This document shows, piece by piece, positions 1 to 19,142 of a DNA stretch of 64,000 nucleotides; positions within the stretch are counted from its first letter, which is position 1, and every line of letters begins with the position of its first letter. Below the pieces are notes generated by a model. It was not told where the DNA came from and did no database searches. It saw nothing but the letters and a program-made list of their open reading frames with translations. The stretch is from IMG/VR virus record IMGVR_UViG_3300042317_001497; one strand, 5' to 3'. Position numbers and translations under genes: made by a program. Source of the stretch: a virus.

Positions 1-3000
1 GGAATATCTATAGAAGATAATTGTTTAGTTAATGAATTTAAGCTAGAAACAAAGTCCCCCATTACCTTTTGTCCAAAATCAAATTTAATAGTTGATAATG
101 ATTTTACATTTCGACTAAAACTCTTACTAAAAGAGCTTAGAACTGTAGAGGAAACAGAATCTAATCCTAGTAGGCTAGATATACCAGCAGATACAGCATT
201 CCCTATGTTTAGTCCTCCTCTATCAAAGTACTTCGGCTGAACAACTACTCCTCCTGTACTATAATTACCACTATTAATACTTTTTAATAATGGAAGATTA
301 TTCTGAGTAGCTCGTCTATTAACAACAAACTCTCCAGGGGTTAACATAGCAGGAACAGTATCGGTACCACGAGGAGCAAAGTTTACAAGTGTTCCATTAC
401 TAGCATAAATAAGACCACCATTAGCTCTGGTCTGTGGTTTCTGAAATTCTGGCGCCTTTTGATCCCTGCTCTCTTTAGCTTTTTTCATCTCGTCTAATTT
501 AATACGACTTGGTAAGAGTCCAAAAAATCCAGCAGTTAAATTTTGTAAACTTGTATTAGCTGTATTATAATTATCATCAAGATATTTATTATCATCTGGT
601 GTAGGATCTTTTGATGATAAATATGAATCTTGAAAGAGATACCAATTTTTAAGTGCAGTTATATCAGTTTTAACTTTATCTAAATTTTTATTTTTATTAT
701 CAGCAGGGAAAAATGATAATAATTGATCTATAAGACTTTGTCTAGCTTGTACGGGAAAAAAGCTATAGGGATTTAGAGATAGTGCTCCTAGCTCTCTTAT
801 GCTTTTAGGAGTATCTTTATCTGTTAATTTTTTATATGTTATAATGCCAGTTTTGTTATCAACGGTGGCTGTTTCACCAGTGCCAACAGTATCTCGAATA
901 GCCTTATCTACTGCTTTCTGTTCTGCTTCTGGAATTTTCTTATCCGCAGCCACCCCTTTCTCATTAGTCTCTGCTAAAATCATTTCTGCAGCTATTTTGC
1001 TTTTTCCAGCATTTTTTAACATTTGACCATAGGATTTAATTTTTTCAAAAAGTGGTGTGACATTTTTCACTTTCTCTAAATCAAATTCTCCAGCCCCTAA
1101 TATAGATCCTAGTTCTTTGGAAGGATCTGATAGGGATAGGGCTCCAATAAATTTCGATACTGCCCCAACATTTCCCCAGGCTGATCCTAACTGGTCATTA
1201 AGAAAATCTCCTTTATTATTGGTTATTCTTTTTCCAAATTCTTTTTGTAGTTTATTTAAGCCTTCTGAGTATGATTTAAATTGATTAGAACTATCAAGTT
1301 TAGTTAAACCAAAATTAGGAATAAATTTTTTGAATACTCCTATAGATGGTAGAATAATATTTTTAATTGCTTCATTGGCATAATCAAGATAAGATTTTCT
1401 AAGCCATGAAGCTTTTGCTTTTTTTCCTTTTCTATCCACACTGGTAGCAAGTTTAGCAGAAGGCTGGAGTGTTGTTTCTCCTCTCTGTTCCATCATTCTA
1501 TTTTTGGCATCTTCTAATTGCTGGAATAAGAAAATCTCTGGTTTGGGATCGGGAATTAACGTATATGCTTTACTTATATCTGATGGGTCTATACCTCCCT
1601 GTATTCCTTCTTCTTGTGTAAGAAGTCTTACTAAGTCTATATTATCTAATTTTAAAGGTTCTTTTGTATTATAGGATCCTGATAATAACTGTGCTATTAA
1701 TGCGGGGTCTTGTGATGTAAATAGTTGCTGTTTAGCCTCTAAAAATGGATTTAGTAGAGGAGCTTCTTTGGATGAGGATAATAAGAATCCATCTAGAAAT
1801 TCATCTGTTGGCGGAATATATCCTTTTTCTTCTGTTAACTTGGGTATCTTTATTTTTTGAGTATTAAATTTGCCTTCATATTTTTCTGATCCTATAGCTA
1901 CTTCGAAAGCATGAGATGTTACTGCTTCATCCAATTGAAAAAGACTTTCTCTTTTCTTGTTTTTTTCTTCTATATCAGATACAATATCTTTGATACGATC
2001 AAGATCTATTGGCTTATTACTCCAATTAAAAGACTGCGCAGTACTATCCTTAACTATATTTAGCTTATTACTATCGCTAGAAAATACATGATCTTTATTA
2101 TCTTTATAAGAATCAACAATTCTATTCCACTTATCATTAAATTGTTTTCTATATATATAAGCAAAATCAGTAATTTTCCCGTAATCTCCCCAGCTTGATG
2201 ATAATTGATTTTTAGGAATAGAAACAAATAAACCACTTAAGTTATCGTCGTACAATGATTCTAATAAAGTATTCATTTTATTATTAGAAGCTTTACTGCT
2301 ATTAATAATAGTAAAATTATTAATATTTTCATATTGATTTTTTAACTCTTCGAAATATTTTAATCTTTCCTTTATATATTTTTGTTTACTCTCAACATCA
2401 GTACCTTTTGCTGTGTTCTCAAGAACACCAGGGCGCAAAATGTCTGTATTAGCTGCTCCTAATTGTTTTCTACCTTTTAGATCCGTTCCCATGAAAGAGG
2501 TAGTTTTTTGAACAGTTGTTAAAGCATTACCATTACCGGTAACTAATCCTTGAGGCTTGGAGTTTGTCCATTGTGCATTATAATATTTATCTTTTACTGG
2601 TTTGGTTGTAATAAATAGTGATCTTTCTAGTATTTTGTCCAGAGACTGTTTATTGCCGTTTTTATATTCTCTATCCCCTGTGTATTTGTCTTCTGCTGAA
2701 AGTATTTTTTTACCAAGTGTATCGTCATTATTTATCGTAGAGCCGGCCAATTTAGTTACTAAAGTATTCAATAGATCAAGCTGTGTTTGTTTAGATAGAA
2801 ATGAGCTATCTGGATCCTCAATCTTATAGTTTTTAAAATCTTTACCCCCTGTGGTATTATTACTTATTCTATACTTTTTACTATGAGTTTCTAATGCATT
2901 AGTCTGCTGTATTGCCTGATAAGGTAATAAAATATTAGCTAATTCTTCTTCTCTGCTCATACCAACGCCTGTAGTATTATATTTTTCAAATGTTGGCAGA

Positions 3001-6000
3001 TTACTTCCCTCCATAACGGTTCCCCAAAGGTATCCTTTTTTTTCTTCTCTATCAATACCGATAGCAATAGGATTAGATGCTCCTAACTCCCAATTGTCCG
3101 GTGTTAGATCAAAAGAGGTGTTAAAAGTCTTTAGATATCTTCTAATCTCATTAATGCCCAGACCATCAGTTTTGGCTTTAAATGCTTCTTTGTCTAATTT
3201 AGCAATAATAGGTCCTGTAAAATCTTGGTCAGTATTATATGATCCATAAACAGTTGCTGGAGTACCGTATAAACGAGAAACCTCATCTGTTTTGGTTAGA
3301 ATATTTTTAACTAAATTCTCCGATAAAACAGGATATTCTTCTTTGGTTAGTCGTACGTCATCAGTAGCAGTCGCTGATTCGGATAGGATACTTTTTCCGG
3401 CTGAAGCCCCAGACCCAGAATCTCTAACATCAACCATGCCTCCAGAAGCATAATATTTGACAGCTCCTCCTGAACTATAGCTATTGATACTCTTCAGTAA
3501 TGGCAGATTTCTTTGAGTAGCACTCCTATTAACAACAAATTCTCCAGGAGTCAACATTGCTGGTACAGTATCTGTTCCTTTTGGTTGAAAAATATTCCCC
3601 CCAACTGATTTATATACTACTCCTCCCGTAGCCATTGTTGGTACTTTATTTATACCCTTTTGTTCATCAGAAGTTTGCATCTGACTAAAATTAAGAGGAG
3701 TATTTTTTATAGCAGCAGCTACAGCGTCTGCCGTACTCCTTGCGATATTCCCGGCCAAATCAGTATTAATTTTAGCCAACTGAATATTAGCCTCTGATTG
3801 TGTTGTAATTGCTTCTCGATAAGTATCTGTAGCAGCTTTCATCTCAGGATCAGCTTCTGGATTTCTTAAAGAGCCTAGTACTTGATCAATAAAAGGATTG
3901 CTTTGTATACCAGATTCTTGTAATTGAGATTGTAAAATATTAGCTTTAACTCCTCCTTGTTTATCTCCTAAAAATGGCATAATCATATTAAGAACATCTA
4001 ATGATTCTTTTCTCTGATCAGCACTAGTGCCAAAATTAGCTTTTCCTTGCATATTATTGGTGAGTCTATTAAATGCTTGATTAAGATTATTAAGTTCACC
4101 AGGAGTGCTAGTCACCAATCTTTCAACAATAGATACTCCAGCTGCTTGCTTTGCTTGTATTTTACTAACTTGATCTAATGCAGCAGATGCTAAATCTCCA
4201 TTCTGTGCTAGTTGCTCTAATGCTGCGACGTTCTCTCTAATAGCGCTATTAGTTTTTACCAAACCATCACTGAAAGCTAGAACTCCTCCCATATCAGTAG
4301 AAGCTTTAGCCTGATCTAGTCCTGTTTGTTGTTGATTTCTTTGTGTTTCTAGATTTTGAATATTTCTTCTAATAGCAGAAGGGTCAGTGGCTCCGCCGGT
4401 GAAACTTCTTGTTTGATTATTGAAATCTGTTTTAGTATCAGATAATTTTATGTCTTTGCCTAATGCTCTATCTAAATTTCTTGTGCCTGTTACTAAAATA
4501 TTTTGAGCATTTCTAAGCCTACTATTGTTTTGTACTTGTATATCTGTTATCTGATTAGTAGCGTCAGATAGTTGATCAAAAGAATTCTTTATAAATTCTA
4601 AGGCCCTGATTGCTGAATCTGAGGCTCCTTTAAGACTCTCTATACTATTAGCTAGTGCTGGTATTTCCTCCATTAGCTGAGAAAAGTCAAGCTTCTCGTC
4701 TCCTCTAGTTCTCATCTTACTAACAGCGGCTTGTACTTGTCCTGTTAATTTATTGGCCAGATCTGGTGGAAAGTTCAAACTCTTTAATTTATCTTTAACA
4801 GCAGATTCTACTTTGGCTCCAATTTCTTCATTATTAGCTCCACCATTGGCTTGTAACGTACTATTAATAGTTGACATTAAAGTGTCTTCAATATTTGCTC
4901 CCAAATTCAACATTTTTTCCATATTACCAGATTGTGCTCCAAATACTGATGAGGCTCCCTTCATAGCAGTAGATCTTTGAGAGTCAGAATAACCTCTTGG
5001 ATTTTTTAATACATCTATCATACTCTGTATTTCACTAGATTTGCCAACTTTGGCATTGCCACTAGCAGAAGCGGCACTTAATTCTAGTTTTTCTGATAAA
5101 GATTGTAATGAATTAGATGATGCTGCTATAGCAATATCCATATTATTGAACATTCTTTTTAAACTAAAACTAAAGTTTCTAGCTGATTTACCAAGAGCTT
5201 CTATTGCCATTTGAGTCTCAGTTGTTTTAATAGCTTTCATGGCAGCAGCATTTCCATATGCAGCTATGATATTTTCTCTTCTGGCTCTTTTGTCCTGTTC
5301 ACTTAATCTTGTGTCTGCTTGTATAAGTTGTAATTGTTTTTCTGCTTCTGGATTTGATCTTGCTAAAATCTCTGCTTGTTTAGCAAATTCTGGTGATGAT
5401 GTTATACTCGCTGACGATTCTCCAGAACGAGTTCTTTGTTCAAAAGCTTTCTTAATATTATCAGCTGGTATAGCAAAGCTTTTAGATATATCGTTTGCCA
5501 TGTCAGGAATAAGATCACGAATATTTGATAGTTCTGTATCTTTATCTCCAGCAGATGCCAAATAGGCAAATATGCCTTTTTTGTCTAGAATTTGAGATCT
5601 ATTAATAGCTCCTTGAGCATCATTATTATCTGTAGCTCCTTCTAATGATCCTAGTAATGCTCCCAAATTACTATTTCCAACTATATCTTGTACAAAACTA
5701 CCTTTTTTGGTTCCGCTCTTTTCGGCAAATGTTAAAGCGGCTGAGGTGCTAGAATCTAGAGCCGTTTTAAGTTGCTCAAGGGCAGCTGGTGTTGCGGCGC
5801 CTGCGTTGCTAATTTCTGTTAAAATATTAGATATTTTTTCGCTACTCTGTTCCATTTGTTTTGCTGCTTTATTTTTTCCAAACTCATTAACAGCATTCTC
5901 AGCAGTTACAAAGGCTGTTGCTATACCAGCCGCAGCGGTTCCTAATCCTGCAATAATTCCTATTGGTCCTCCCATAGTAGCCATTGCTAAAGCTCCTCCA

Positions 6001-9000
6001 ACAGCGTTTGAAGATTGTTCAACAAAAGAATTATTAGAAGCTTGAGTCTCTGTTTGGGCTTCTTGAGTACCAAACATTTGAGCGGCCATAGGTATTCCCA
6101 TGCTTAGTCCATACATACCCATACCACCTCCCATACCTCCTCCTCCTCTACCCCCTCTTCCTCCTCCCCCTCCACCAAAACCTCTAGCTCTTCTACCGCT
6201 AGCATCTCTGGTAACACCATCTGCTCCCATAGTAGCAGCAGCACTTCTCCATCCTTGTTTACCCCCTCCAATATCTACTTTCTTTAATCCCATTAAACGA
6301 CCAGCAGCAGAATCTACTCCTTTGATTAATCCAAAAAAGGAGTTTTTAGTCAGAGAACCCACATCTGACATAACTTTCTTAAAACCTCCCATAAATGTTC
6401 CGGCATTTTTTATACTAGAACTCCATGAGGCTACTGCCATTCCTCCTTTATTAAGAGAAGAAGATAATTGTGAGGCTCCTAAATGCAATTTTGACATGCC
6501 ACTACTAACTTTAGCTGCTCCGGATACCAATGGAGACATAGCTTTATTAAATACTGATAGCAGAGCAGATCCGGATGTTCCTCCTTGAGCTAAATTACTA
6601 GCTCTGGCTTTAAGCTTGTCTGCTCCTGCTTCGTACTGCATAGATCTTATACGGTTGCCTCTTTCAGAGCCTGCTACGGCTCCTCCAACAGCTCCAATAA
6701 CTCCTCCTAGCGGAGCCCCAGCTAATCCACCGATAGCTCCACCAGCCGCAAAACCAGCCCACCCACCTATGGTGGCTCCTTGAAACATACCGAATCTATC
6801 ATCCGCTCTGTTCTGCTTTTTCCTGGCTAGTCTTTGCTCAGGAGTGGTAGATCTTTTCTCAGGAGTGGCAGCTTTCTCTATTGTCATACCAGAAACAGTA
6901 GCACCAACTCCCGTCCGACCTACCATAGTCATAGAATCCTTGCCGCTCTGAACAGCGGCTCTAAATGCTTGGTTTGCATCCCCGGTTTGTCTAACCTGTG
7001 TATTAAAAACTAGAAGTGCTTTTTCTGTAGCTTCAGTAGTAAAGCCTAATCTATTAAATCTAGCAGTAATTTTTGGGGCTATCCTATCTAAAGTAGCTTG
7101 AACATCACCGGGCCCATTGACTTTAAGCGGCTGGCCTTTACTGTTACTTAGTCCCGTTATTTGTTTAAAATCTCCTGTTCTACCAACCGTCCCGGCATTT
7201 CTAGTATCTGGTGTTCCTCCTAAAATATTTGGACCTCTAGCTTTGGATGGTTGTCTAGCAGCACTAGTAGTACCAGCAACCATGCTTTGTGCTAAAGCAT
7301 CTGCTTGAGACACACCTTTTTCTAAAGAGCGATCTAATCTTTTCATCGCCATTCCAACATCTTCAACTTTCCAGCCAGAAACTAATTTAGCTAATTGTTC
7401 AAAAGCTTGAGAGTTTTTTTGTATACTAGCTCTTAATCTAATAGCGTCTTTATTAGACATTCCAGATAATGCATTATCTATCTCTCCGCCAACAGCTAAT
7501 TTCTGTACGGATCCCCCTTTATTATATCTAACTATGCCTCCGGTATGATACTTTGGCAAGTTATCTAGTCCTACCCTGCCTCCAATATTTAGTTTATCTA
7601 GATTGTGGCGTCCTATCTGATTAGCCGATGTTCTATTTATAACATATTCACCCTCTTGGGCTAATATTGGTATGTCTCCACCTTTGGCTTTTTTGATAAA
7701 TTTTGTACCAACATTTTCTTGGTTCCATGTGGATATAGTAGGAGCCTCTTGTAGTTCTTTAAAAAAGCCGGAATATCTCCCGCTTTTTCTATTTTTCCTT
7801 ATCCTATTTAGTTGTTCTTCATTTAAATCATCAGCAACTATTCTACCATCTTCTACTAATTGGTATTTACCAGGATATACTTTGGAGCTACCCACATGAG
7901 TTGGTTTTTGATTAGGGCCGAGCTGTACTCTTTGACCTAGTGTTTTTGGTTTTACAGACCCCCCTACTGCATATCCCTTTAATAATTCTTCATAATTAGG
8001 CTTACTAATAGCTGATGAACTAGAATCTTTTAATCGTTCTGCTAAGTCTATTGCTTTATTGCTAGTTGGAGTTTGTGCTCCTAGAAAAGCTGCTAATTTT
8101 TTAGGATCAAATCGTTTATCTTTAGAAGATCTGCTAAGGTCCATAGGAGATGGAATTGATCCACCAAGTGCTTTTCTGGTTGCTTTTTTCTTTTTTGCTT
8201 GTTCTATATCTCTTTTATATCTTGTCGCTTGAATTAATTTTGATCTGGCAGTACTAGTATCACGAGTAGCATCAACCATAGCCCTGGGATCTATGCCTAC
8301 TAGCTTTGAGATTTCTGGACCCAAACCTTTTGGAAAGTCTAAGGCTTGTTTTTTAGGATTGTATGGTGCTCCTGCTGCTGCAAGCCCAGCTTCTAATCCA
8401 TATCCCTCAACATCTGGTAATATTTTTCCTACAATATCTCTAATACGTTTTTTATCTGTTACTGATTGACTGCCTGCTGATTTGCCTATTATTTTTCCTA
8501 GTCTAAGTGTAAGCTGTTCCATACTTCGTCTAATAACTGCTCTGACTCTTTTTGAATCTCTTTCAGGCAATACTCCTGTCTCTAATGTAGCAGGAAAGCC
8601 CTTAGTGGTTTTTTCTCCCCTTTTCTTTCTTCCTTTAACATCCGGAGTAACAACTTCTTCTGATGTTGGCTTATAATCGCCAGCGGAATTAAATAATCCA
8701 ACAACACCTATTTTTCTTTTCTTAGCTCTGGTTGAAGTTTTTTCTTCTTCAGCCTTTCTAATAATTCTTTGGTCTTCTAGTTCTTTTATGACTTTGGCTC
8801 TAATTTCTTCTGATCCTTTTGCTCTTTGGTCTAATAATCGACGAGAATCCATAGGAATAAAAACTCCTAATTTTTCCGCTTCTCTTAACAGGTCTGCTTT
8901 ACCCATATCGCTCAAAGACTTGATGGGTTTATCTGTGCCTTCGGCAAATCTTTGTCTTCGTTGCTCTAGTCTAGATAGCATCTTTGATGGAAATCTACCC

Positions 9001-12000
9001 AATTTAGTAGATAAAGAGTCTCTTTCTTTTCTTAAGAGACCTATCTTCTCTGCGTCCTCTAGTGGAGTAGTCTTGGTAACTCTAGCAGGAAGTTCTGATA
9101 GTTGTGCTTGAATTTTAGATAATCTTCCAGCAGTTCCTTTTCCAGATGAGCTATTAGCTTGAATCTTAGCCAAGATACTATCTAGTAGTTTTGGTCTTTT
9201 TTGTAGTGTGTCCATGTGTTTCTGAACATAGTCAAAACCTTCTGGGGTCAATAATTTTTTAAGTGATGCTGTGTCATTAGCCATTATAGCATCTCTGGCT
9301 TTGGTACCGCTAATTCCACCTAATCTGGGAGTAACAAAAGGAGCATATCCTGCTCTTGTATATTTATCTAAATCTTTTGGATTCTTCTCATCTCCGACTA
9401 TTGCAACATTACCTTTCGCTTTAGGTACAATATAGTCATCGTCTCCTACCTTAAAAGCAGAAGGGATGCTTCCAGGGCCACTACCGCTTGGCATAGCAGA
9501 CACATTGGTTCCTGTGGCTCCAAATACAGCTTTCGCCATACCCATTCTTGACGGTTTGTCGTCTGGACCTTTTAGTGGCATAAACGCAGATCTTTTATCG
9601 TGAGGATCTTTACTAAAAGGATCTATAGGAACATCACCACTAAGCAAGGCGACAGAATCTTTTGTTGGTATACCTGTCTTTTTTGATGCTGCTGAGATAG
9701 CTGCTGGATATCCGGCATGAACAGGTCCCATATTACCATAAAATAAAAGTGTTTTATCTGGCGTTCTAACATTGGGTTGATTAGTCCGAGTTTTCTTAAA
9801 GTTTTCTTCTAATTTAAGTGTTGCTACTTTTTTAGGGTCAACTCCAGATACCTCACTAGCAGCAATATACGCCTCGCCTACTCCACTATCTAAAGGAGCA
9901 CTCTTGGTGGCTCCGGCTTTTCTACCAAAAAGATTTTTACCAGTAGAGTCTCTAAGCTTTCTATTTTTCTTTAGAACCTCCTGAGACTCTTTAGTTCTAG
10001 AAGATAAAGCAATAACTCTATCAGCAGAGCTTAAAGCATTTCTTTGAGATGGTCCAGCAACAGAGGTGGTGTCTACTACCTGGTCAGATTTAAGAAGATC
10101 CGCTTCTGTTAATATAGGATATCTTGTAGTTTTTCTTAGTTTAGCATTATCTACTTCTTGTCCTCTAGCTCCTCCTTGAGCCATAGTACTTTTGGTAGAT
10201 CCTGCAACACCAAATATATTGGTTAATCTTTTTAGATCTCCTGATTGGCGACGAGATGCTGCAAGATTAGATAGGTGGTCTTTAAACTCTGCCACCCCTT
10301 TGATCCCTAGTCTTTTCATTTCTGCATCAATGATTGGGCCTTTAATAGGATCTTTTAGCAATCCAGATATCTCATCACTATCTATATATCCTACGCTTCT
10401 TGTTGCTGATCCTCCTTTGCCAAACTTTTGAACAATACCACCTATAGCATATGGCATCATGCTAATAGCGTTTTCTAAAGCATTATCATAGTATCTATCA
10501 GCTCTACGTTTAGCATTTCTCTTCTTTTTGTTTTTTTGTTCTTTTATTTTTAGTTTAGTTTTCAATAATCTATCTACTTCTACTCCTGAAATTTTAGAAA
10601 CTATAGCAGAATCCATTGGGGATAGTGATACTACTCCAACAGAAACGGGTTTCTTAGGAAGTCTATTAGAAGCCATGTCATTTGCTATTTTATTAGCAAT
10701 ATTGGATTTCAGAGCAGCATTTGCAGCTGCTGTTCTTTTAACATCAGTAGATATATCAGGTGGCATACCACTAAAAATAGGAGATAAAGCTGACCCTATA
10801 CCTCTTGGAAAATCAAAAGCTTGATTATTATCTTTTTTATCTTTTGACCGACCACTAATTTTTAATAAAGCTGTCTCGAATAATCCTCCATAAATACTTT
10901 CTTTATTTTGAATATTAATATTACCGGTTGGTATAGTTATATTTCCTTGTGTTTTATCAACAATAGCTTTAGAGAGATCGTTTACTCCTTGGTTTAGGTA
11001 CCCCTTTAATATTGCTTCTTCATTGATTTTTTGCTTCGTACCTTTTCTATTTAATCCTCTGATAATAAAAGGAAAATCCGTTTTAAATCTTCCTTTTCTA
11101 TCGTATGTTGTAGATTCTATTTTTTCTACAGCCTGTCCTACTGTACTCTTAGTTTTAGACGGTCTCCCTCTGCCAGATCGTACCTGTGCTCTCACCTCTC
11201 TCCACGAACCATTTTCAAATTTTTGTACATCTCCGCCAAATGCATGATTTCTAGCAGCATCCATTACTCCATCTGGTCCCCCAAGAGATCTTGTAGCATC
11301 TGTTCTTATAACAAAACTTCCTTCTGGTAATTGAGTATAAAAACTATCTGTGCGACCAGACCCAGGAACCTCAGCATATCCTCCTTTAGAAAATTTAGAG
11401 ACTCTTCCTCCTCTTCTTTTGCCCGCTATTCCATTTTTATCCGCATGATTTAATTGTCTTAATCTAGATACTCCAATCCTACTAACAGCATCAGGATATA
11501 CTACAGTTTCTCCCGGCATTAATGCAACATCCACATCCACAGGCCCGCCAGCAGCATATCTATTGATGGGTCCACCACTAGCTCGTCTTCTACCAGTAGA
11601 GCCTTGTCTCATAGCTCCTACGAATCCTAATCCAAATTGTGTAGCAGCCTGTGCTCCCTTAAATGCTAAAAGCATACCTAATACCGGCAACACACCCTTA
11701 GCACCATCGGCTAATTTAATAAGACCACTTGCAAGACCAAGCGCTCCTTTAGTTAAAAGCTGAAAACTATCAGAGCCCCCGATATCTCTAAATAAAGCTA
11801 AAAATTCTTCTCTTACTTTGGATATTTGATTTGCTAAAGATAATTGTGCTTTAATAGAATCCTCAGCCAAAGAACCTTGTCCTTGTTGAGCTACTGCTAA
11901 AGCTTCTTGTGCAGTGCCGAATTGCTGAATAAGGGGAATAACTTTGCCTATCTGACGAAAACCACCAAGCTCCTCAACGATCTGAGAAAACTTTAAATCT

Positions 12001-13145
12001 CTAGGATCTATGCTACTCAAACCTTTGGATAGTAGTTCAATAGCTTTGTAAGCTCCAACAAATTTACCCTGAGCATCAGTAAGATTAACATTGAACTCTT
12101 TCAACGCTTCAATAGTACTGCCTCTCTGGATACGAGTAAAGATAGTTCTTAAGCCAGTAGCAATAGTTTCTGCACTTTCACGAGTGGTGGCTCGAACACT
12201 AGTAAATACAGCAATAAATTCATTTAAAGCCTGTTTACCTTCACTTACTCCTCTACTAGCAGCAGCAAACACACCACCAGTACGCTGAATAGCAGCAATA
12301 ATATCACTAGATTCTACTGCAAATTTTGCTGCAACAGAATTTATAGAGCCTAATGAAGCCTCTAAATCTTTGGCACTAATATCAAACTGTCTCATTAAAG
12401 CAATAGAACCTTCTACCGTTCTATTCATATCATCAAAAGACGGAGCTAATGAGCTTAGAGCCAAAGCCTTAAGTGCTCTTTCAGTATCTCTAGCACTCAA
12501 TCCTGCCTGAGCCAAAGTAGACGAAATCTTTGTTAACTCTCCAGAAGAAACTCCTAAGTTTGTTGATAAGCCCGTAATCTCTTTTTCCAAACCCTTCAAA
12601 GATTCTGCGGATCCTCCGGTAACCTGTTGTAGTTTAACCAGTTCTTGATTATAATCTACATAAGCAGAAATACCTCCTTTAATAGCATTGGTTAATGCAA
12701 AAACACCTCCTGTTACTATACTAAATGCAGCAAATCTTCTAATAGCTAGATAAGATTGTCTACCGAACTCTGCCATTTCTGAATGAGCCATCTGAATTTG
12801 TCTAGAAGTATTAGAAGTGGCTCTAGATAAATTATTAGTAGTATTTACAGCAGCATTAAGCTGTTGTGTGGTTCTACCTACAGCATTGGTATTAAATGCT
12901 TGAGCAAAATTAGCAATTGCTGATGCTGCGGCATTTGCTGATGTTTGTGTCTGGGCTAATGTGGTATTTAATGTTACCAATGAAGCATTAAGTCTTCCAA
13001 CTCCGGTAACGGCGTTTGGATTAACTGTTAAATTAACAGTGCTATTGATAGTACCAAGCTGTCTACGAATATTAGAAACTATATTTCCAATATTAGATGG
13101 TCCTCTAAGATTTAGCTGTGCGGTTAAATTAAAAGCTGATGACAT
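1..13145 (-). CDS. Giant tape measure protein (>=4381 aa, runs off the window start) with inserted cargo domains
   Basis: Manual translation from ATG at 13145 (MSSAFNLTAQLNLRGPSNIG...) stays open to position 3. It has a TMP core (ELVKLQQVTGG...LSTNLGVSSGELTKISSTLAQAG...AKFAVESSDIIAAIQRTGG), GxxxG hydrophobic segments and repeated GTDTVPAMLTPGEFVV motifs. It lies downstream of the tail genes. Confidence 0.9.
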   Translation of the reverse strand, partial: MSSAFNLTAQLNLRGPSNIGNIVSNIRRQLGTINSTVNLTVNPNAVTGVGRLNASLVTLNTTLAQTQTSANAAASAIANFAQAFNTNAVGRTTQQLNAAVNTTNNLSRATSNTSRQIQMAHSEMAEFGRQSYLAIRRFAAFSIVTGGVFALTNAIKGGISAYVDYNQELVKLQQVTGGSAESLKGLEKEITGLSTNLGVSSGELTKISSTLAQAGLSARDTERALKALALSSLAPSFDDMNRTVEGSIALMRQFDISAKDLEASLGSINSVAAKFAVESSDIIAAIQRTGGVFAAASRGVSEGKQALNEFIAVFTSVRATTRESAETIATGLRTIFTRIQRGSTIEALKEFNVNLTDAQGKFVGAYKAIELLSKGLSSIDPRDLKFSQIVEELGGFRQIGKVIPLIQQFGTAQEALAVAQQGQGSLAEDSIKAQLSLANQISKVREEFLALFRDIGGSDSFQLLTKGALGLASGLIKLADGAKGVLPVLGMLLAFKGAQAATQFGLGFVGAMRQGSTGRRRASGGPINRYAAGGPVDVDVALMPGETVVYPDAVSRIGVSRLRQLNHADKNGIAGKRRGGRVSKFSKGGYAEVPGSGRTDSFYTQLPEGSFVIRTDATRSLGGPDGVMDAARNHAFGGDVQKFENGSWREVRAQVRSGRGRPSKTKSTVGQAVEKIESTTYDRKGRFKTDFPFIIRGLNRKGTKQKINEEAILKGYLNQGVNDLSKAIVDKTQGNITIPTGNINIQNKESIYGGLFETALLKISGRSKDKKDNNQAFDFPRGIGSALSPIFSGMPPDISTDVKRTAAANAALKSNIANKIANDMASNRLPKKPVSVGVVSLSPMDSAIVSKISGVEVDRLLKTKLKIKEQKNKKKRNAKRRADRYYDNALENAISMMPYAIGGIVQKFGKGGSATRSVGYIDSDEISGLLKDPIKGPIIDAEMKRLGIKGVAEFKDHLSNLAASRRQSGDLKRLTNIFGVAGSTKSTMAQGGARGQEVDNAKLRKTTRYPILTEADLLKSDQVVDTTSVAGPSQRNALSSADRVIALSSRTKESQEVLKKNRKLRDSTGKNLFGRKAGATKSAPLDSGVGEAYIAASEVSGVDPKKVATLKLEENFKKTRTNQPNVRTPDKTLLFYGNMGPVHAGYPAAISAASKKTGIPTKDSVALLSGDVPIDPFSKDPHDKRSAFMPLKGPDDKPSRMGMAKAVFGATGTNVSAMPSGSGPGSIPSAFKVGDDDYIVPKAKGNVAIVGDEKNPKDLDKYTRAGYAPFVTPRLGGISGTKARDAIMANDTASLKKLLTPEGFDYVQKHMDTLQKRPKLLDSILAKIQANSSSGKGTAGRLSKIQAQLSELPARVTKTTPLEDAEKIGLLRKERDSLSTKLGRFPSKMLSRLEQRRQRFAEGTDKPIKSLSDMGKADLLREAEKLGVFIPMDSRRLLDQRAKGSEEIRAKVIKELEDQRIIRKAEEEKTSTRAKKRKIGVVGLFNSAGDYKPTSEEVVTPDVKGRKKRGEKTTKGFPATLETGVLPERDSKRVRAVIRRSMEQLTLRLGKIIGKSAGSQSVTDKKRIRDIVGKILPDVEGYGLEAGLAAAGAPYNPKKQALDFPKGLGPEISKLVGIDPRAMVDATRDTSTARSKLIQATRYKRDIEQAKKKKATRKALGGSIPSPMDLSRSSKDKRFDPKKLAAFLGAQTPTSNKAIDLAERLKDSSSSAISKPNYEELLKGYAVGGSVKPKTLGQRVQLGPNQKPTHVGSSKVYPGKYQLVEDGRIVADDLNEEQLNRIRKNRKSGRYSGFFKELQEAPTISTWNQENVGTKFIKKAKGGDIPILAQEGEYVINRTSANQIGRHNLDKLNIGGRVGLDNLPKYHTGGIVRYNKGGSVQKLAVGGEIDNALSGMSNKDAIRLRASIQKNSQAFEQLAKLVSGWKVEDVGMAMKRLDRSLEKGVSQADALAQSMVAGTTSAARQPSKARGPNILGGTPDTRNAGTVGRTGDFKQITGLSNSKGQPLKVNGPGDVQATLDRIAPKITARFNRLGFTTEATEKALLVFNTQVRQTGDANQAFRAAVQSGKDSMTMVGRTGVGATVSGMTIEKAATPEKRSTTPEQRLARKKQNRADDRFGMFQGATIGGWAGFAAGGAIGGLAGAPLGGVIGAVGGAVAGSERGNRIRSMQYEAGADKLKARASNLAQGGTSGSALLSVFNKAMSPLVSGAAKVSSGMSKLHLGASQLSSSLNKGGMAVASWSSSIKNAGTFMGGFKKVMSDVGSLTKNSFFGLIKGVDSAAGRLMGLKKVDIGGGKQGWRSAAATMGADGVTRDASGRRARGFGGGGGGRGGRGGGGMGGGMGMYGLSMGIPMAAQMFGTQEAQTETQASNNSFVEQSSNAVGGALAMATMGGPIGIIAGLGTAAAGIATAFVTAENAVNEFGKNKAAKQMEQSSEKISNILTEISNAGAATPAALEQLKTALDSSTSAALTFAEKSGTKKGSFVQDIVGNSNLGALLGSLEGATDNNDAQGAINRSQILDKKGIFAYLASAGDKDTELSNIRDLIPDMANDISKSFAIPADNIKKAFEQRTRSGESSASITSSPEFAKQAEILARSNPEAEKQLQLIQADTRLSEQDKRARRENIIAAYGNAAAMKAIKTTETQMAIEALGKSARNFSFSLKRMFNNMDIAIAASSNSLQSLSEKLELSAASASGNAKVGKSSEIQSMIDVLKNPRGYSDSQRSTAMKGASSVFGAQSGNMEKMLNLGANIEDTLMSTINSTLQANGGANNEEIGAKVESAVKDKLKSLNFPPDLANKLTGQVQAAVSKMRTRGDEKLDFSQLMEEIPALANSIESLKGASDSAIRALEFIKNSFDQLSDATNQITDIQVQNNSRLRNAQNILVTGTRNLDRALGKDIKLSDTKTDFNNQTRSFTGGATDPSAIRRNIQNLETQRNQQQTGLDQAKASTDMGGVLAFSDGLVKTNSAIRENVAALEQLAQNGDLASAALDQVSKIQAKQAAGVSIVERLVTSTPGELNNLNQAFNRLTNNMQGKANFGTSADQRKESLDVLNMIMPFLGDKQGGVKANILQSQLQESGIQSNPFIDQVLGSLRNPEADPEMKAATDTYREAITTQSEANIQLAKINTDLAGNIARSTADAVAAAIKNTPLNFSQMQTSDEQKGINKVPTMATGGVVYKSVGGNIFQPKGTDTVPAMLTPGEFVVNRSATQRNLPLLKSINSYSSGGAVKYYASGGMVDVRDSGSGASAGKSILSESATATDDVRLTKEEYPVLSENLVKNILTKTDEVSRLYGTPATVYGSYNTDQDFTGPIIAKLDKEAFKAKTDGLGINEIRRYLKTFNTSFDLTPDNWELGASNPIAIGIDREEKKGYLWGTVMEGSNLPTFEKYNTTGVGMSREEELANILLPYQAIQQTNALETHSKKYRISNNTTGGKDFKNYKIEDPDSSFLSKQTQLDLLNTLVTKLAGSTINNDDTLGKKILSAEDKYTGDREYKNGNKQSLDKILERSLFITTKPVKDKYYNAQWTNSKPQGLVTGNGNALTTVQKTTSFMGTDLKGRKQLGAANTDILRPGVLENTAKGTDVESKQKYIKERLKYFEELKNQYENINNFTIINSSKASNNKMNTLLESLYDDNLSGLFVSIPKNQLSSSWGDYGKITDFAYIYRKQFNDKWNRIVDSYKDNKDHVFSSDSNKLNIVKDSTAQSFNWSNKPIDLDRIKDIVSDIEEKNKKRESLFQLDEAVTSHAFEVAIGSEKYEGKFNTQKIKIPKLTEEKGYIPPTDEFLDGFLLSSSKEAPLLNPFLEAKQQLFTSQDPALIAQLLSGSYNTKEPLKLDNIDLVRLLTQEEGIQGGIDPSDISKAYTLIPDPKPEIFLFQQLEDAKNRMMEQRGETTLQPSAKLATSVDRKGKKAKASWLRKSYLDYANEAIKNIILPSIGVFKKFIPNFGLTKLDSSNQFKSYSEGLNKLQKEFGKRITNNKGDFLNDQLGSAWGNVGAVSKFIGALSLSDPSKELGSILGAGEFDLEKVKNVTPLFEKIKSYGQMLKNAGKSKIAAEMILAETNEKGVAADKKIPEAEQKAVDKAIRDTVGTGETATVDNKTGIITYKKLTDKDTPKSIRELGALSLNPYSFFPVQARQSLIDQLLSFFPADNKNKNLDKVKTDITALKNWYLFQDSYLSSKDPTPDDNKYLDDNYNTANTSLQNLTAGFFGLLPSRIKLDEMKKAKESRDQKAPEFQKPQTRANGGLIYASNGTLVNFAPRGTDTVPAMLTPGEFVVNRRATQNNLPLLKSINSGNYSTGGVVVQPKYFDRGGLNIGNAVSAGISSLLGLDSVSSTVLSSFSKSFSRNVKSLSTIKFDFGQKVMGDFVSSLNSLTKQLSSIDI

Positions 13146-13248: not shown

Positions 13249-14115
13249 TCAGCCAGTCTTGTTTTCCTCTGAAGTATTTTCAGATACTGATTGATTTGAT
13301 TCTGGTTTATCACTAGTGTCTTCATCAATAATAGGCTTTCCATTTTCGTCTAAAAACGGTTGTGTCTCAACAATATACTCTCCGTCTGCATCTACTCTGT
13401 TACCAAACTTATCAATAAAATTACCCTGATCATCAATGAATCTACCATTTTCATCCACCAGTCTTCCTTCTGAATCAATCAGTCTTCCTTTTTTATCAAT
13501 CATTCTTAATTTGTCATCAATAAATTTATATTTCTTTAGAAACTTATTTTCAGGCAAATTACTTTCATAATCATTATCCAAACCGTAAAGCATATTAGCC
13601 AAATTCTGAGCTGCAAGTGCTGCTACTTGTTCTGAGCCCCTATTTAGATAATCTTCCATATTACTAAAAACTGGCTCTTTAGTATCGTTATACACCACAC
13701 AGGCTGATACTAAGTAGTTAAATCTAGCATTATCTGCTTGTCCTTCAGCACTATGATTATCCAAAGAAGTTTTGACACTAATAAGATCTCTAATTTGATC
13801 TCTAGTATCTTTCATCTCAATAGCCAAGTCTTTGGCCTCATTTAAACCAAAGCCTCCCTTTGCTAGTCTTTTTTCTCCGTCTAGTAGTTTTCTTTGTAGT
13901 TCAGAAAACTTAGCCTGTTTTTCATCATTCCATAGTCCCTGATCTTGTAGCAGATCATCTAGCTTGGCTCGTACAACGCTCTTTGATTTGATAGCGTCGG
14001 TAAAAGCCTGATTATATATCTTCTGGGCCTCTCTCTGATCATTTAAAGACGGAGATTTAACTAGTATCTCTCTTTCCTTGGTATCTACTTCTACTTTAAA
14101 AGTCTTAGTCTTCAT
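13249..14115 (-). CDS. Probable tail assembly chaperone with C-terminal 7-aa (L/F)(I/V)DxxG repeats
   Basis: 288-aa ORF immediately upstream of the TMP. The call rests on position only. Confidence 0.5.
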   Translation of the reverse strand: MKTKTFKVEVDTKEREILVKSPSLNDQREAQKIYNQAFTDAIKSKSVVRAKLDDLLQDQGLWNDEKQAKFSELQRKLLDGEKRLAKGGFGLNEAKDLAIEMKDTRDQIRDLISVKTSLDNHSAEGQADNARFNYLVSACVVYNDTKEPVFSNMEDYLNRGSEQVAALAAQNLANMLYGLDNDYESNLPENKFLKKYKFIDDKLRMIDKKGRLIDSEGRLVDENGRFIDDQGNFIDKFGNRVDADGEYIVETQPFLDENGKPIIDEDTSDKPESNQSVSENTSEENKTG

Positions 14116-14444
14116 TCTCTGTCTCCTTTATTATTTTTATGGTCCGGATTATTAAAAAACAACTTATAATGATACTTATTTTCAAATTTAGGCTTATTGT
14201 TAGGAACCCTCACATTATTATAAAGATAATCTGATAATTCATCAATGGCCGCTCTTAATTGATTATTGCCATTATTTAAAATATTATTTCTGGTTTGTTC
14301 CCATAAGTTATAATACATAGCAGCTTTTTCAGTATCTTCTTCCCATAAGTGATCAAAAGATTCTTCAAATCTAGCTAATGAACCTATCATAGTAGTTTTA
14401 ATTCTGGTCTCAATATTAGATAATAATCTTTCTATATTATTCAT
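14112..14444 (-). CDS. Hypothetical protein (tail module)
   Basis: 110-aa ORF overlapping the next gene by 4 nt. Confidence 0.7.
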   Translation of the reverse strand: MNNIERLLSNIETRIKTTMIGSLARFEESFDHLWEEDTEKAAMYYNLWEQTRNNILNNGNNQLRAAIDELSDYLYNNVRVPNNKPKFENKYHYKLFFNNPDHKNNKGDRE

Positions 14445-14447
14445 AAT

Positions 14448-15488
14448 TTATTTCCTATTTTTAAGCATATCATTTCGTTGTTGTAATAGTTCTCTTTGTA
14501 CGTCTGGGAGTTTGCTATCATCTACGGTTCCCGCTGTTTTAATATAATTCATCTTTTCCTTAAGTCTAGCGCTAGCTTCAGCACTATTCAAAGAAGTAAT
14601 TTCTTCATAAGACTCATTATTATTAGCAAATAAGAAAACCTCATTAGCGTTTTTAAGATTAGGATTAAGCTCATCTATGCTTTGCTGAGTCTTCTCTTTT
14701 TCTCTTTTTCTTCTTTGCAGAATCATCCAACCATCAAGCATATCATCGTCATTAATAATAGAATCTGGGGGACAATGTTCATTTTCATATATATTATCAT
14801 ACATTTTTGTAATATTAACTAAATTTCTTTGGTCATCTGTCCAATCTATAACCTGAGTACTAAAAACATTATTTTTATTAGCATTCCAGTAAGATCTCCA
14901 CATAGAACTGCGAGCCAAAAATTTAAGTTGATCCATATTAATAGTATTATGATTTATTTCATTAACTATATCATTAAAGTCTGTATAAGATGAAGTATTT
15001 CTATTGGTACTATCAAAAACTTTTTTATTATTTTTGAATATAGTATTACATATAATATATTCGTTCTTTATAGCCATTGCATATCCTTCTAAAGTATGAT
15101 TCATAAATTCATTCTTTTTTGATAGAATATTATTCATACTTTCTCTGGTTTCTGTCAGATTTTTCCTAATTTTCTTAAGATTATCTTTTTGTGTTGAATT
15201 CTTATATAGTTCCACTTTAGAGTCTTCTATTTTTTTTTCTAATTTAGTTATTAGCTTATCAGTATCCTTTTGCCACAATCCTAGGTTTATCATTACGGGA
15301 ATTAAATTTTCTTCTCTTATCCATTCGTTGTATTTTTCTTCATTGATAATATTATTATATATTAAACTTCCTTGATATTTGATATGATTAGGAGCCGATC
15401 TTAATTCATATTGTTCATTCTTAAAATAAAAATATAGAATTCCTGTAAAAATCCTGTTAAGATAAAGCTCCACATCTTGATCATTCAT
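14448..15488 (-). CDS. Hypothetical protein, possible tail chaperone
   Basis: 346-aa ORF between the major tail gene and the TMP. Confidence 0.7.
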   Translation of the reverse strand: MNDQDVELYLNRIFTGILYFYFKNEQYELRSAPNHIKYQGSLIYNNIINEEKYNEWIREENLIPVMINLGLWQKDTDKLITKLEKKIEDSKVELYKNSTQKDNLKKIRKNLTETRESMNNILSKKNEFMNHTLEGYAMAIKNEYIICNTIFKNNKKVFDSTNRNTSSYTDFNDIVNEINHNTINMDQLKFLARSSMWRSYWNANKNNVFSTQVIDWTDDQRNLVNITKMYDNIYENEHCPPDSIINDDDMLDGWMILQRRKREKEKTQQSIDELNPNLKNANEVFLFANNNESYEEITSLNSAEASARLKEKMNYIKTAGTVDDSKLPDVQRELLQQRNDMLKNRK

Positions 15489-15624
15489 CTTTTACTTTGG
15501 GCTTCTTAAGCTCCAGAATTTCCTGATTTTTGTCCCTGAGCTGCTGTTGTAGCATCTCTATATATTTTTGACTATTAGATAAATCAGTATATAATTTACC
15601 TATTACTATAAATAAATCGTCCAT
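15481..15624 (-). CDS. Small coiled-coil hypothetical protein (47 aa, not in ORF track)
   Basis: MDDLFIVIGKLYTDLSNSQKYIEMLQQQLRDKNQEILELKKPKVKDE; ATGAATGA overlap with the next gene. Confidence 0.6.
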   Translation of the reverse strand: MDDLFIVIGKLYTDLSNSQKYIEMLQQQLRDKNQEILELKKPKVKDE

Positions 15625-15665
15625 CCTTTTGTTCCTATATTATGTATCTACTTATTTAATAACTA

Positions 15666-16733
15666 TCAATTCTCTGGCCATACAAGATTTACATCGTCAA
15701 ACGAGCCAGCTCCGGTCATTACGAAGTGGTTAAATGTCTGGAAACTATAAGTAATAGTAGCATTAGCTCCTCCAGTATCACCACCACTATAGTTAACACT
15801 AGTTAGCTTGTTCTTGGCCCCAAGATCTAGTGTTAAATTATCTCCAGATTCACCACCACAAACCTGTACAATTACAGTTTTGTCTTGAACATTTTTGTAA
15901 ACATTACCACAACCTGTAAGACCATCGAAATCGCTAGCATTCATTTGATCGCCGTCGTTAGCAATAATTTCGAATTCTGATGTTACTTCAAGAGGGAACT
16001 TAACATAACGATGATAAGGAGCCATAGCACCTAGTTCGAATATAGCTTCACGACCAAGGTCAGCACTAATCTTAACACTCTGTAGATAAGGCTTAGTTCT
16101 ACCTGATGGTACTGGAATACCAGCTGTACCAGTTGGTAGGGTAGAGCCGCTATAATTTAGATTATATCTTCTAATTGTTTGAGAAGAAGATTGTTCGGTA
16201 TCGAACTGTGTTACACTCATGCTGGTGCCAGAGTTCCATACTTTATTATTACCTACTAAGGTGACATCTTCTGTAGCATTACCTTCTACTGGAATAGTAT
16301 AGCTAAAGTTAGATAGATACATACCGCTGCAATCAACATAATTTTGAACTGTGCCGCTAGCAGCGCCCTGATTATCGGGCCATATACCAAGTCTAAAATT
16401 AACTCTATTATTAGCTAGTTCTACAATATTTTTACCACTAGCATCAAGAGCAGATCCACCCATGCAAATTAAATATAGTGGCATTGTGCCATCTAATACT
16501 TTATTTAGTGTTACCTGAACTTCGGGAACATTCTCAATGTTATCATATAGTTCTAGTTGACCTAGTGTAAAAACTTGCTCTAAATTAAAGTTTGTGGTCA
16601 TACCAGCGCTCTGGATACCTAGTGGGGTAATCCAATCGCTTCCGCCTTGCCATTTTGTGCCGTCTCTGTCTTGGGGCTGTAATTGAATAGCTTGTGTGGC
16701 GTAAAAAATTCTGTTATTTGCTGTGGCTGGCAT
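15666..16733 (-). CDS. Major tail (tube) protein
   Basis: 355-aa beta-rich, Gly/Thr-rich protein (TTNFNLEQVFTLGQLELY, ISADLGREAIFELG) in the canonical position upstream of chaperones and TMP. Confidence 0.7.
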   Translation of the reverse strand: MPATANNRIFYATQAIQLQPQDRDGTKWQGGSDWITPLGIQSAGMTTNFNLEQVFTLGQLELYDNIENVPEVQVTLNKVLDGTMPLYLICMGGSALDASGKNIVELANNRVNFRLGIWPDNQGAASGTVQNYVDCSGMYLSNFSYTIPVEGNATEDVTLVGNNKVWNSGTSMSVTQFDTEQSSSQTIRRYNLNYSGSTLPTGTAGIPVPSGRTKPYLQSVKISADLGREAIFELGAMAPYHRYVKFPLEVTSEFEIIANDGDQMNASDFDGLTGCGNVYKNVQDKTVIVQVCGGESGDNLTLDLGAKNKLTSVNYSGGDTGGANATITYSFQTFNHFVMTGAGSFDDVNLVWPEN

Positions 16734-16829
16734 ATTAATTTCTCCTAGACATTGATTTTTTTAAAGAAATTTTAAGAGTCTTGATCAATCATATTGTAGA
16801 CTAATACTAGTTACACCATATATACGGAA

Positions 16830-17774
16830 TCATGGAAAAATTTCCAAACTCAGTCTTAAGATACCATTATATAAGCTAGAGGTTATAGTATTTAGCTCAG
16901 AAATAGAAATGTTTCTAATATTAAAATAATTAGCTCTATATAATATATCATTTATAAGTTGATCATAATTTAATCTATTAGGATTGGGTTGTCCCAGGTT
17001 ATCTACCGGATTAACTTTTGCTTTGACCACCTTATTAATATCATATAGTCTTAAAGACTTATCTTTTTGTAATAATAAAATACTAATAATATTATCTCTT
17101 TGTACAGGATTATTTGTAAAAATATGCAATAATACGTCCTGAGTAATAATATTAGCTCTTGTTCCAAGCTCATGAGGAGTAAGTACTACTCTAGGGGTAG
17201 ATTCTATCATTATAGCAGGCATTTCTATTCTATGAACAGATGTTATATCTTTTATATTGTTGGCTTTAGAATTAGATGGATTATAAAATATGTTCTCTAG
17301 AGTCTTCCACCAAACTGATTCATTAGATTTATATACTTGTATATATCTAGAAGAATAATTTAACTCAATTTGACTATTAGTATTAATATTGTTATTAAAA
17401 ATAATTCTACCAAGAGGATAATCTAAAGTATATGAATATTGACTATTTCCTGTGGGGGCCGGTAAAAATGTTTGATTAACATAAATACCAGAGATAGGAA
17501 TCGGGGAAATATTATTATGAACAACACCAGTTTCATAAACCCAATCTTTTCTTGCTGTTTCCCATACTCGACCAGGAGAGTATCCAGTTTCGGTAGATGG
17601 TCTTAGTTTATGCAGGCTTTGCTGGGTGGCGGGGGATCCGCTTGGTGGAATATTGATATTTATAAATCCTCCAATATTCAGAAAAGACCAGTCCAGAAAA
17701 CTTTTAAGATTATCTTCTAAATTAGCTGTTGGTCCTCTAGAACCAATATCTTCTACAAAATCAAAAGTACTCAT
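16830..17774 (-). CDS. Tail terminator/completion-like protein
   Basis: 314 aa; C-terminal EMPAIMIES...QDVLLHIF...QRDNIISIL pattern; synteny. Confidence 0.5.
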   Translation of the reverse strand: MSTFDFVEDIGSRGPTANLEDNLKSFLDWSFLNIGGFININIPPSGSPATQQSLHKLRPSTETGYSPGRVWETARKDWVYETGVVHNNISPIPISGIYVNQTFLPAPTGNSQYSYTLDYPLGRIIFNNNINTNSQIELNYSSRYIQVYKSNESVWWKTLENIFYNPSNSKANNIKDITSVHRIEMPAIMIESTPRVVLTPHELGTRANIITQDVLLHIFTNNPVQRDNIISILLLQKDKSLRLYDINKVVKAKVNPVDNLGQPNPNRLNYDQLINDILYRANYFNIRNISISELNTITSSLYNGILRLSLEIFP

Positions 17775-18939: not shown

Positions 18940-18941
18940 TA

Positions 18942-19142
18942 TTATCTCTCTTGAATTAATAGTATAATAGGCTGTTCTTTTTGTATAGATATTTTATTAT
19001 CAATAAGTAAATTAACAGATCCTGAACCTATATTCTTTTTTATTCTAATAGTATTAGTATCAGTATTAATACTATCAATACTCAAATAATATGTAGATGC
19101 CGATAATATATAAGATCTATTTAGTATTTGAATAATATTCAT
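18942..19142 (-). CDS. Hypothetical protein
   Basis: 66-aa ORF packed tightly between its neighbours. Confidence 0.55.
   Translation of the reverse strand: MNIIQILNRSYILSASTYYLSIDSINTDTNTIRIKKNIGSGSVNLLIDNKISIQKEQPIILLIQER

Follow-up and report, generated by a model that had tools for sequence, protein, structure and literature searches.

Tape measure proteins (TMPs) are usually viewed as rulers that also form channels, and some, of the mycobacteriophage TM4 type, have cell-wall hydrolase motifs embedded in them. In one experimentally studied case, that of Thermus phage P23-45, a TMP also carries a working enzyme into the cell: gp96, of 5,002 residues, is a TMP joined to a virion RNA polymerase that is active in the host (Nat Commun 2024, PMC10770324). 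Sle1 is a TMP-related modular effector of contractile injection systems (PMC13277306). Furthermore, phages and conjugative elements encode polyvalent proteins, long virion-associated chains whose enzyme domains vary (ADP-ribosyltransferases, kinases and others) and which are proposed to be delivered together with the DNA (Iyer et al., 2017, PMC5512222). In that survey the only nucleotidyltransferases are of the Pol-beta type, phage polyvalent domains fused to MuF are mentioned, and the main text makes no mention of tape measure or HUP. Finally, a P-loop domain and a HIGH adenylyltransferase occur in a single phage-encoded chain in Bas30_86, the NadR-like enzyme of NARP3 (9X6F/9X6H), in which the NMNAT (residues 1-166) is followed by the RNK (167-351; PMC13464706).

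Here, we describe a giant TMP with an internal module of two such domains, encoded in 64,000 nucleotides of viral DNA (IMG/VR record IMGVR_UViG_3300042317_001497; the whole stretch is referred to as the window). The TMP gene lies on the minus strand at 3..13145 and leaves the window at its left end, so that the first 4381 of its 4450 codons are seen in the ORF list and translation; this translation is identical to the start of a database protein of 4450 aa (P0005). A TMP had been proposed here from the sequence alone, and this assignment is now secure, because the product carries a PhageMin_Tail core domain at aa 188-393 (11967..12584, minus strand; PF10145, E 2.1e-22, 80.5 bits against a cut-off of 33.2) and because the gene lies downstream of genes for a terminase (31738-33771), a portal (29459-31666) and a major head protein (26395-27405), all on the minus strand, with ORFs without assignment between the last of these and the TMP gene. 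The product also matches TMP PHROGs 28, 4211 and 167. The family is very large, with at least 1364 giant members from lake and other metagenomes, and in the best 120 of these the N-terminal 560 aa of the TMP are at least 61% identical. Not one of the 4450 residues is a cysteine, and the median cysteine count among 166 giant TMPs is likewise 0. The source phage is uncultured and belongs to a family whose complete genomes are about 140-240 kb; DNA of relatives was obtained by pattern scans. Searches of GenBank phages and of one genome per prokaryote species found no relative and no cultured representative.

The module comprises about 520 residues (aa 900-1420; 8886..10448, minus strand), as defined by colinear alignment and profile search. 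Thirty giant TMPs align colinearly over this stretch, with identities of 30-72%, and a module profile is matched over its full length, both domains included, in about 85 cluster representatives, which with few exceptions are giant TMPs or fragments of such proteins. Similarly, when 1.84 billion representatives were scanned with a single sequence, 65 matches were returned, nearly all to proteins of 1.5-7.3 kaa or fragments of these; a related-locus search with the window's single protein as query gave no match. In the family profile, the most conserved columns include the Walker A, (T/H)xGH and ISGTxxR motifs. Embedded P-loop and nucleotidyltransferase motifs had been pointed out in the sequence-only reading and they are in frame in the TMP ORF; as the whole of aa 900-1420 aligns colinearly across giant TMPs, these motifs are more than chance strings. 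The span originally given to them (9220-10330, aa 939-1309) takes in both domain cores, but misses aa 910-938, with the first P-loop strand and helices, and, at its other end, the helices that follow the transferase core up to about aa 1400. The N-terminal border of the module is marked by a Gly-Gly 'joint' motif, GG.[IVL]..[FY]..G, found by motif scan at aa 902-911 (10413..10442, minus strand), and joints similar to it terminate the module in many relatives.

This module is an accessory, exchangeable cassette in the variable middle region of the TMP. A comparison of its presence and absence in orthologous TMPs, proposed at the outset, found it to be variable: among the closest TMPs (the best 120 of at least 1364) it is present in 62 and absent from 58, and in one relative (P0090) the homologous flanks are retained and the module is cleanly missing between them. 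The clearest case of exchange is a near-identical TMP (P0024), which over aa 1-900 is 100% identical to that of the window, save in two 50-aa windows (94% and 98%), and over aa 1804-4450 is 96% identical overall. Between these regions lies a block from aa 901 to about 1850 (7596..10445, minus strand), module included, across which identity is only about 33-72%, the module allele of P0024 being 45% identical; comparing P0005 with P0024, identity falls from 100% to about 45% exactly at the Gly-Gly joint. In the same region, one relative (P0112) carries an ADP-ribosyltransferase domain (32.7 bits against a cut-off of 23.4), and precomputed Pfam matches place EF-hands in the TMP of another (P0035). 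The 62/58 split, the allele swap, P0112 and P0035 together show a feature of polyvalent proteins, namely many variable catalytic domains in one chain that differ between close relatives. The resemblance to the proteins of Iyer et al. (PMC5512222) lies in these exchangeable domains, an ADP-ribosyltransferase in one relative among them; unlike in those proteins, the carrier here is the TMP itself.

The N-terminal half of the module (aa 914-1064; 9954..10406, minus strand) is, judging by sequence, a family-specific alpha/beta domain with a true Walker A that is strictly conserved in relatives, where the Gly before the Lys is found in 77/77 other representatives and the Lys in 78/78. The 'Walker-A-like motif' first noticed in the window (aa 977-987, 10185-10217, correctly placed) therefore marks a conserved domain with a canonical Walker A across its relatives. 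It had also been called a kinase, a label that stays putative. AAA_33 (PF13671) did not match the TMP ORF of one related complete genome at E values up to 0.001, and neither Zeta_toxin (PF06414) nor AAA_28 (PF13521) matched that of four related complete genomes at E values up to 1, although AAA_28 did find another gene, of 175 aa, in one of the four. Member-by-member Pfam and NCBIfam matches have E values of 0.005 or worse and are scattered over unrelated P-loop families; they include weak NCBIfam matches to the tRNA-modification ATPases TsaE and MnmH (E 0.005-0.03), which, by analogy with the PDB profile matches, probably reflect the Walker A only. There are no stand-alone relatives of the P-loop half, only four fragments, all from contigs no longer than 3 kb, and a search of the ESM Atlas with a canonical P-loop half gave no usable match. 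A conserved hhhD.D strand at aa 917-924 was considered as a putative, circularly permuted Walker B.

The C-terminal half contains the core of a HIGH-superfamily nucleotidyltransferase (aa 1129-1316; 9198..9761, minus strand), as had been suggested from the motifs and as profile, fold and motif evidence now agree. The suggestion had been staked on a Rossmann-like HUP fold, and a Rossmann-like alpha/beta class fold is what was found for this half. In a search with the family profile, the best PDB match is MJ0951 (UPF0348, 3GMI; E 6.4e-8), followed by 9X6F (E 0.019); it is the family profile only that reaches 3GMI, since phmmer with the window's module alone found no match in the PDB. Structure comparison places the fold as close to NadD, NMNAT and NadM as to other HIGH enzymes, at 10-17% identity to the solved structures. 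By its predicted model this half has the NadD/NMNAT/PPAT fold, whereas in its sequence signatures it is nearest to MJ0951/UPF0348 and the phage 'cytidyltransferase-like' group. The second signature, of the ISxTxxR type, is intact in the window as ISGTKAR (aa 1278-1284; 9294-9314, minus strand), and its Ser and Arg are invariant in 85/85 sequences. It aligns to the same motif in MJ0951, 9X6F and the FAD synthetase 3OP1, an ISGT-type signature is present in the archaeal NMNAT 1F9A too, and the ISGTKAR region is the part that matches PF16581. The string VAIVGDE, noticed earlier, lies at aa 1248-1254. At Pfam cut-offs the matches are marginal: the window's module scores 21.4 bits with PF16581 (cut-off 26.7) and is not listed for PF01467 (cut-off 21 bits), and its relatives score 20-27 bits with the former, one only passing the cut-off, and 17-20 bits with the latter, nearly the whole profile being covered in three of the four. 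The core is followed by a predicted helical extension (aa 1292-1401; 8943..9272, minus strand), made up of long helices with a pLDDT of about 86-93 (model residues 183-292). Compared with the known HIGH nucleotidyltransferases (NadD/NMNAT, PPAT (CoaD), MJ0951/UPF0348, TmcAL and the phage 'cytidyltransferase-like' proteins), the window's domain differs in being embedded in a TMP, in its fusion to a private P-loop domain and in reading HxGY.

In the window's copy both nucleotide signatures are changed. At the Walker A position (aa 979-987; 10185..10211, minus strand) the codons ggt gtt gca gga tct acc aaa agt act read G-V-A-G-S-T-K-S-T, so that Thr984 stands where Gly precedes the Lys of GxxxxGK[ST] and the canonical pattern is lost. 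At the (T/H)xGH position (aa 1137-1146; 9708..9737, minus strand) the chain ends in P-V-H-A-G-Y (codons cct gtt cat gcc gga tat), with Tyr1146 in place of His and His1143 in place of the usual Thr, and here too the signature is lost. This HIGH-like string had been placed at 9708-9754; it ends at aa 1146 and spans 9708-9752, so that the earlier coordinate was 2 nt off. At these two columns, His is found in 79/79 other representatives where the window has Tyr1146, and Thr in 75/79 where it has His1143, so the window's copy is a homologue with a broken signature. Indeed, it is the sole outlier with GSTKST and HAGY among about 80 representatives, and it keeps 38 of the 42 most conserved positions, three of its four deviations falling within the two signatures. 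Possible degeneracy had been suspected from HAGY alone and in fact extends further, both signatures being uniquely altered. As both exceptions are unique to the window, nucleotide handling in this copy is probably impaired or altered with the fold retained. The HxGY string might also not be dead but compensated, to judge from the His that appears at its first position.

Taken together, we consider it probable, at roughly 60%, that this is a real accessory two-domain enzyme cassette of a giant polyvalent TMP, that it is carried in the virion, and that it is impaired or altered in this phage. The cassette would ride in the virion within the TMP chain, leave the tail before the DNA and refold in or at the host cytoplasm, and in most relatives it would then, with NTP, phosphorylate and/or nucleotidylylate some target very early in infection. 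Delivery into the host is plausible by analogy with the TMP-fused RNA polymerase of P23-45. As with gp96 (PMC10770324), a giant TMP and a nucleotide-handling enzyme share one chain, the enzyme acting in the cytoplasm, an action that is here a prediction. Unlike the enzyme of gp96, an N-terminal, multisubunit-type RNA polymerase whose activity has been shown experimentally (PMC10770324), the present one is predicted from sequence; here it is the TMP core that lies at the N terminus, with the P-loop and HIGH-transferase cassette as a putative, optional cargo inside the chain. Sle1 and the TM4-type TMPs likewise use the tape-measure scaffold as a reconfigurable carrier of functional modules, but their modules are directed at membrane, ribosome or cell wall and none is a P-loop and nucleotidyltransferase pair. 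A more specific version, tentative and on balance rather unlikely to hold in full, is that this two-enzyme effector, delivered ahead of the DNA, acts on a nucleotide-derived target (NAD+ or its precursors, an immune signalling nucleotide, or tRNA) and that an arms race drives its exchange among near-identical phages, the GSTK/HxGY allele of the window being one of changed specificity or a ligand-binding decoy and not a dead remnant.

The module might instead act in the producing cell, either as a late-expressed, TMP-tethered enzyme or as an NTP-dependent aid to folding or tail assembly, and be removed or inert in the virion. The confinement of the P-loop domain to these TMPs could mean a TMP-specific role, and the joint motifs that flank the module could be processing sites. 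However, the module is not needed for assembly, since about half of the closest TMPs are without it, and the exchange of alleles between near-identical phages, like the toxin-type ADP-ribosyltransferase domain that a relative has in this region, is what is usually seen in cargo directed at the host. A role in the producing cell or in assembly is unlikely.

It is also doubtful, and a little more so, that the pair serves NAD+ salvage in the manner of NadR or NARP3, with the P-loop half as a nicotinamide riboside kinase and the transferase half as an NMN adenylyltransferase, injected to rebuild NAD+ against an NAD-depleting defence. The fold is no further from NadD, NMNAT and NadM than from other HIGH enzymes, the NARP3 enzyme Bas30_86 (9X6F) is the second-best profile match, 1F9A shares the ISGT-type signature, and the ADP-ribosyltransferase of P0112 is an NAD-using domain. 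Against this, the domain order is opposite to that of NadR and Bas30_86, the P-loop half coming first, and this half is not AAA_28-like, the riboside-kinase family having failed to find any TMP in four related genomes in one of which it found another gene. Moreover, a PnuC transporter (PF04973) is absent from those four genomes, which are 92-100% complete, and both signatures are altered in the window's copy. TMPs are present in few copies per virion, which limits any role in bulk metabolism, and we infer that so few injected enzymes could not plausibly refill a cellular NAD pool. The earlier proposal of a NadR-like pair acting on NAD pools is therefore not upheld; what remains in common is the phage-encoded single chain of a HIGH adenylyltransferase and a P-loop domain, and Bas30_86 is a soluble, expressed enzyme (PMC13464706), unlike the virion-type TMP described here.

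Chemistry directed at RNA or tRNA, with the transferase half as an adenylate-forming ligase of the TmcAL/MJ0951/CitC type and the P-loop half as its partner on tRNA or another RNA, is improbable. MJ0951 is the best sequence relative, TmcAL is among the Foldseek matches, in which only TmcAL and 3GMI reach over the helical extension, the top viral match of the transferase half is annotated as a citrate lyase ligase, and TsaE and MnmH are the weak NCBIfam matches of the P-loop half. However, the alignments that span the extension are at high rmsd (12-15 A for TmcAL), no TmcAL is in the VIA top 50, and the TsaE and MnmH matches probably extend to the Walker A only. Finally, the reading that a long, repetitive structural protein without enzyme domains came to resemble these motifs by chance is almost certainly wrong: the window alone has both signatures imperfect and no Pfam match of its module at cut-off, but the signatures are conserved across the family, one relative passes the PF16581 cut-off, and for the transferase half the 3GMI profile match and the fold comparison refute such a reading.

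As an accessory cassette that would be carried in the virion, the module shows a very large uncultured family using its TMP scaffold for optional, exchangeable enzymes that are predicted to handle nucleotides, one of them a private P-loop domain without relatives outside these TMPs. If delivery holds, these would be pre-made effectors, active before any phage gene expression, and the exchange of alleles among near-identical phages would single out the module as a conflict locus. A natural experiment is offered by the copy in the window, in which the fold is conserved and both nucleotide signatures are changed. One idea, that the two signatures break together as parts of one pathway, fits the window and P0024/P0025 but is weakened by three other lineages (P0035, P0062 and P0078), in which several conserved residues are changed in the P-loop half only, and so the two domains need not always act together.

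The giant tape measure protein (TMP) of this phage carries a two-domain module, a P-loop half followed by a transferase half, at window 8886-10448 (-) (aa 900-1420 of the TMP), and 30 giant TMPs align colinearly with this stretch, showing 30-72% identity. The four motif strings on which the sequence-only reading had based an embedded P-loop and nucleotidyltransferase were all recovered in frame by translation and by reading of the DNA, at positions correct to within 2 nt. In an exhaustive single-sequence scan, the transferase half matched 65 proteins, nearly all of them 1.5-7.3 kaa in length or short fragments, and a profile of the whole module spanned both halves in about 85 representatives. 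No stand-alone relatives of the P-loop half were found, only four fragments on contigs no longer than 3 kb. Among family sequences, the Walker A Lys is present in 78/78 and the Gly preceding it in 77/78; the His of the G.F.P.T.GH signature is kept in 79/80, and the Ser and Arg of ISGTxxR in 85/85. Our literature searches found no account of a cassette joining a P-loop to a HIGH transferase, and no cultured relative was found among the phages of GenBank.

The transferase half has a HIGH nucleotidyltransferase as its core (aa 1129-1316), beyond which a helical extension reaches about aa 1400. An alignment of 20 sequences, comprising the window, loci from pattern scans and short database fragments, gave a profile that aligned both signatures with those of 3GMI (MJ0951, UPF0348) in the PDB (E 6.4e-8) and matched, more weakly, a NadR-like NMNAT (9X6F), PPAT, GCT, FAD synthetase and archaeal NMNAT. 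PF16581 matched all 20 aligned members and PF01467 matched 16 of them, every score being under the cut-off. Furthermore, in four related genomes (92-100% complete) PF01467 was found inside the TMP ORF at 17-20 bits, over nearly the full profile in three and over positions 1-66 only in the fourth, and PF16581 scored 20-27 bits in the TMP, once above the cut-off. All Foldseek matches at E <=0.001 were HIGH nucleotidyltransferases, TmcAL among them, and the best matches in the viral library were phage 'cytidyltransferase-like' proteins. Because the profile, Pfam, Foldseek and viral-library matches all point to HIGH nucleotidyltransferases, the HUP (Rossmann-like) fold, on which the earlier claim for this segment had been made to depend, is borne out.

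The P-loop half is less easily placed. The model, built from the window's degenerate sequence only, is an alpha/beta domain (pLDDT 73.8) in which a strand and a short helix flank the Walker A site. Pairing of the two halves in the manner of NadR, as was proposed at first, or of NARP3 (PMC13464706) is possible, but we do not favour it, because the domain order is reversed, no AAA_28-type kinase was found in the TMP and no PnuC in the genomes of four related phages, and PPAT and MJ0951 are equally close to the transferase half; moreover, a few injected copies would seem insufficient for a bulk pool. The proposal that the P-loop half is a kinase was not supported, as the AAA_33, Zeta_toxin and AAA_28 profiles had no match in the TMP of related genomes and sequence searches gave matches confined to the Walker A region. 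The P-loop half can instead be called a private P-loop NTPase-like domain, and its many invariant Arg and Asp residues would suit an enzyme. Separately, stand-alone AAA_28 (NadR-kinase-type, 175 aa) and CTP_transf_like (151 aa) proteins were seen outside the TMP in related phage genomes, at G001:C1:180224-180682 (-) and G003:C1:24058-24366 (+), respectively.

The TMP ORF (3..13145, -) has 4381 open codons, extends past the end of the window and is an exact prefix of P0005, a database protein of 4450 residues found on three contigs of up to 197 kb. Its N-terminal part holds the TMP core (PF10145, 80.5 bits vs a cut-off of 33.2), the same ORF is matched by TMP PHROGs, and the gene lies downstream of the terminase, portal and major head genes, all on one strand. 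P0005 contains no cysteine (0/4450 residues), and the median count among 166 giant TMPs is also 0; a cysteine-free chain would suit unfolded storage and envelope crossing. A unit whose core reads L-T-P-G-E-F-V-V-N-R occurs in two near-identical copies, one at window about 3500-3560 (-) (aa about 3200) and the other about 1070 residues away at 290-350 (-) (aa about 4270). A looser third copy is at aa 544, and the units resemble joints or anchors repeated along the TMP scaffold.

Within this scaffold the module is accessory and exchangeable. The N-terminal 560 residues retrieved at least 1364 giant TMPs, and among the closest 120 of these (>=61% identity) the module is present in 62 and absent in 58; in one related TMP, P0090, it is cleanly missing between homologous flanks. 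Another related TMP, P0024, matches that of the window over aa 1-900 at 100% identity, except in two 50-aa windows (94% and 98%), and over aa 1804-4450 at 96% overall; from aa 901 to about 1850 the identity is only about 45%, the break falling exactly at a Gly-Gly joint motif. In P0112, a close relative without the module, the same variable region holds an ADP-ribosyltransferase exoenzyme domain (PF03496, aa 1156-1370, 32.7 bits vs a cut-off of 23.4), and in the fragment P0186 this domain is joined to the P-loop half. EF-hand domains are annotated in P0035 (precomputed Pfam). The module is flanked on either side by a short repeat unit that includes D-F-P-x-G-[IL]-G, at window 10710-10823 (-) (aa 775-812) and 8235-8348 (-) (aa 1600-1637). 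In a local BLAST with a very small search space, the two units match each other at E 3e-4, and a Pfam search of both flanks gave no match.

The window's copy is an outlier: in the other sequences, 42 columns show conservation of 93% or more, and it deviates at four of these. The change at position 954 (Tyr to Phe) is conservative; the remainder are Gly to Thr at 984 in Walker A (Gly in 77/77 other sequences), Thr to His at 1143 (Thr in 75/79) and His to Tyr at 1146 (His in 79/79), and the signature changes were confirmed at the codon level. Elsewhere, both signatures are broken only in P0024/P0025, and changes in some other lineages affect the P-loop half alone. As fold-defining positions are kept and both nucleotide signatures are changed, the substitutions argue for impaired or altered nucleotide handling by the module in this phage, although, with His moved to the first position of the motif, the site could be compensated.

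The module would be carried in the tail within the TMP, exit before the DNA and then refold, after which it may use an NTP on some target. A precedent for an enzyme-bearing TMP is gp96 of P23-45, a 5,002-residue TMP fused to a virion RNA polymerase responsible for transcribing the pre-early genes (PMC10770324). Polyvalent virion proteins (PMC5512222) provide the general concept for such cargo; by term search, the main text of that article covers nucleotidyltransferases of the Pol-beta type only and contains neither 'tape measure' nor 'HUP'.

Nine consecutive ORFs that separate the head genes from the TMP (window 13249-20718, -) received no PHROGs function; eight had no PHROGs match at E <=0.001, and the other (19146-20153) matched only a family of unknown function. 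They presumably encode tail tube and tail assembly proteins, in a lineage that is poorly sampled. Just past the terminase lie a nucleotide-sugar epimerase homologue matching phrog_540 (E 3.7e-73; 35052-36053, -) and a protease-family gene matching phrog_3677 (E 3.5e-45; 38394-39605, +).
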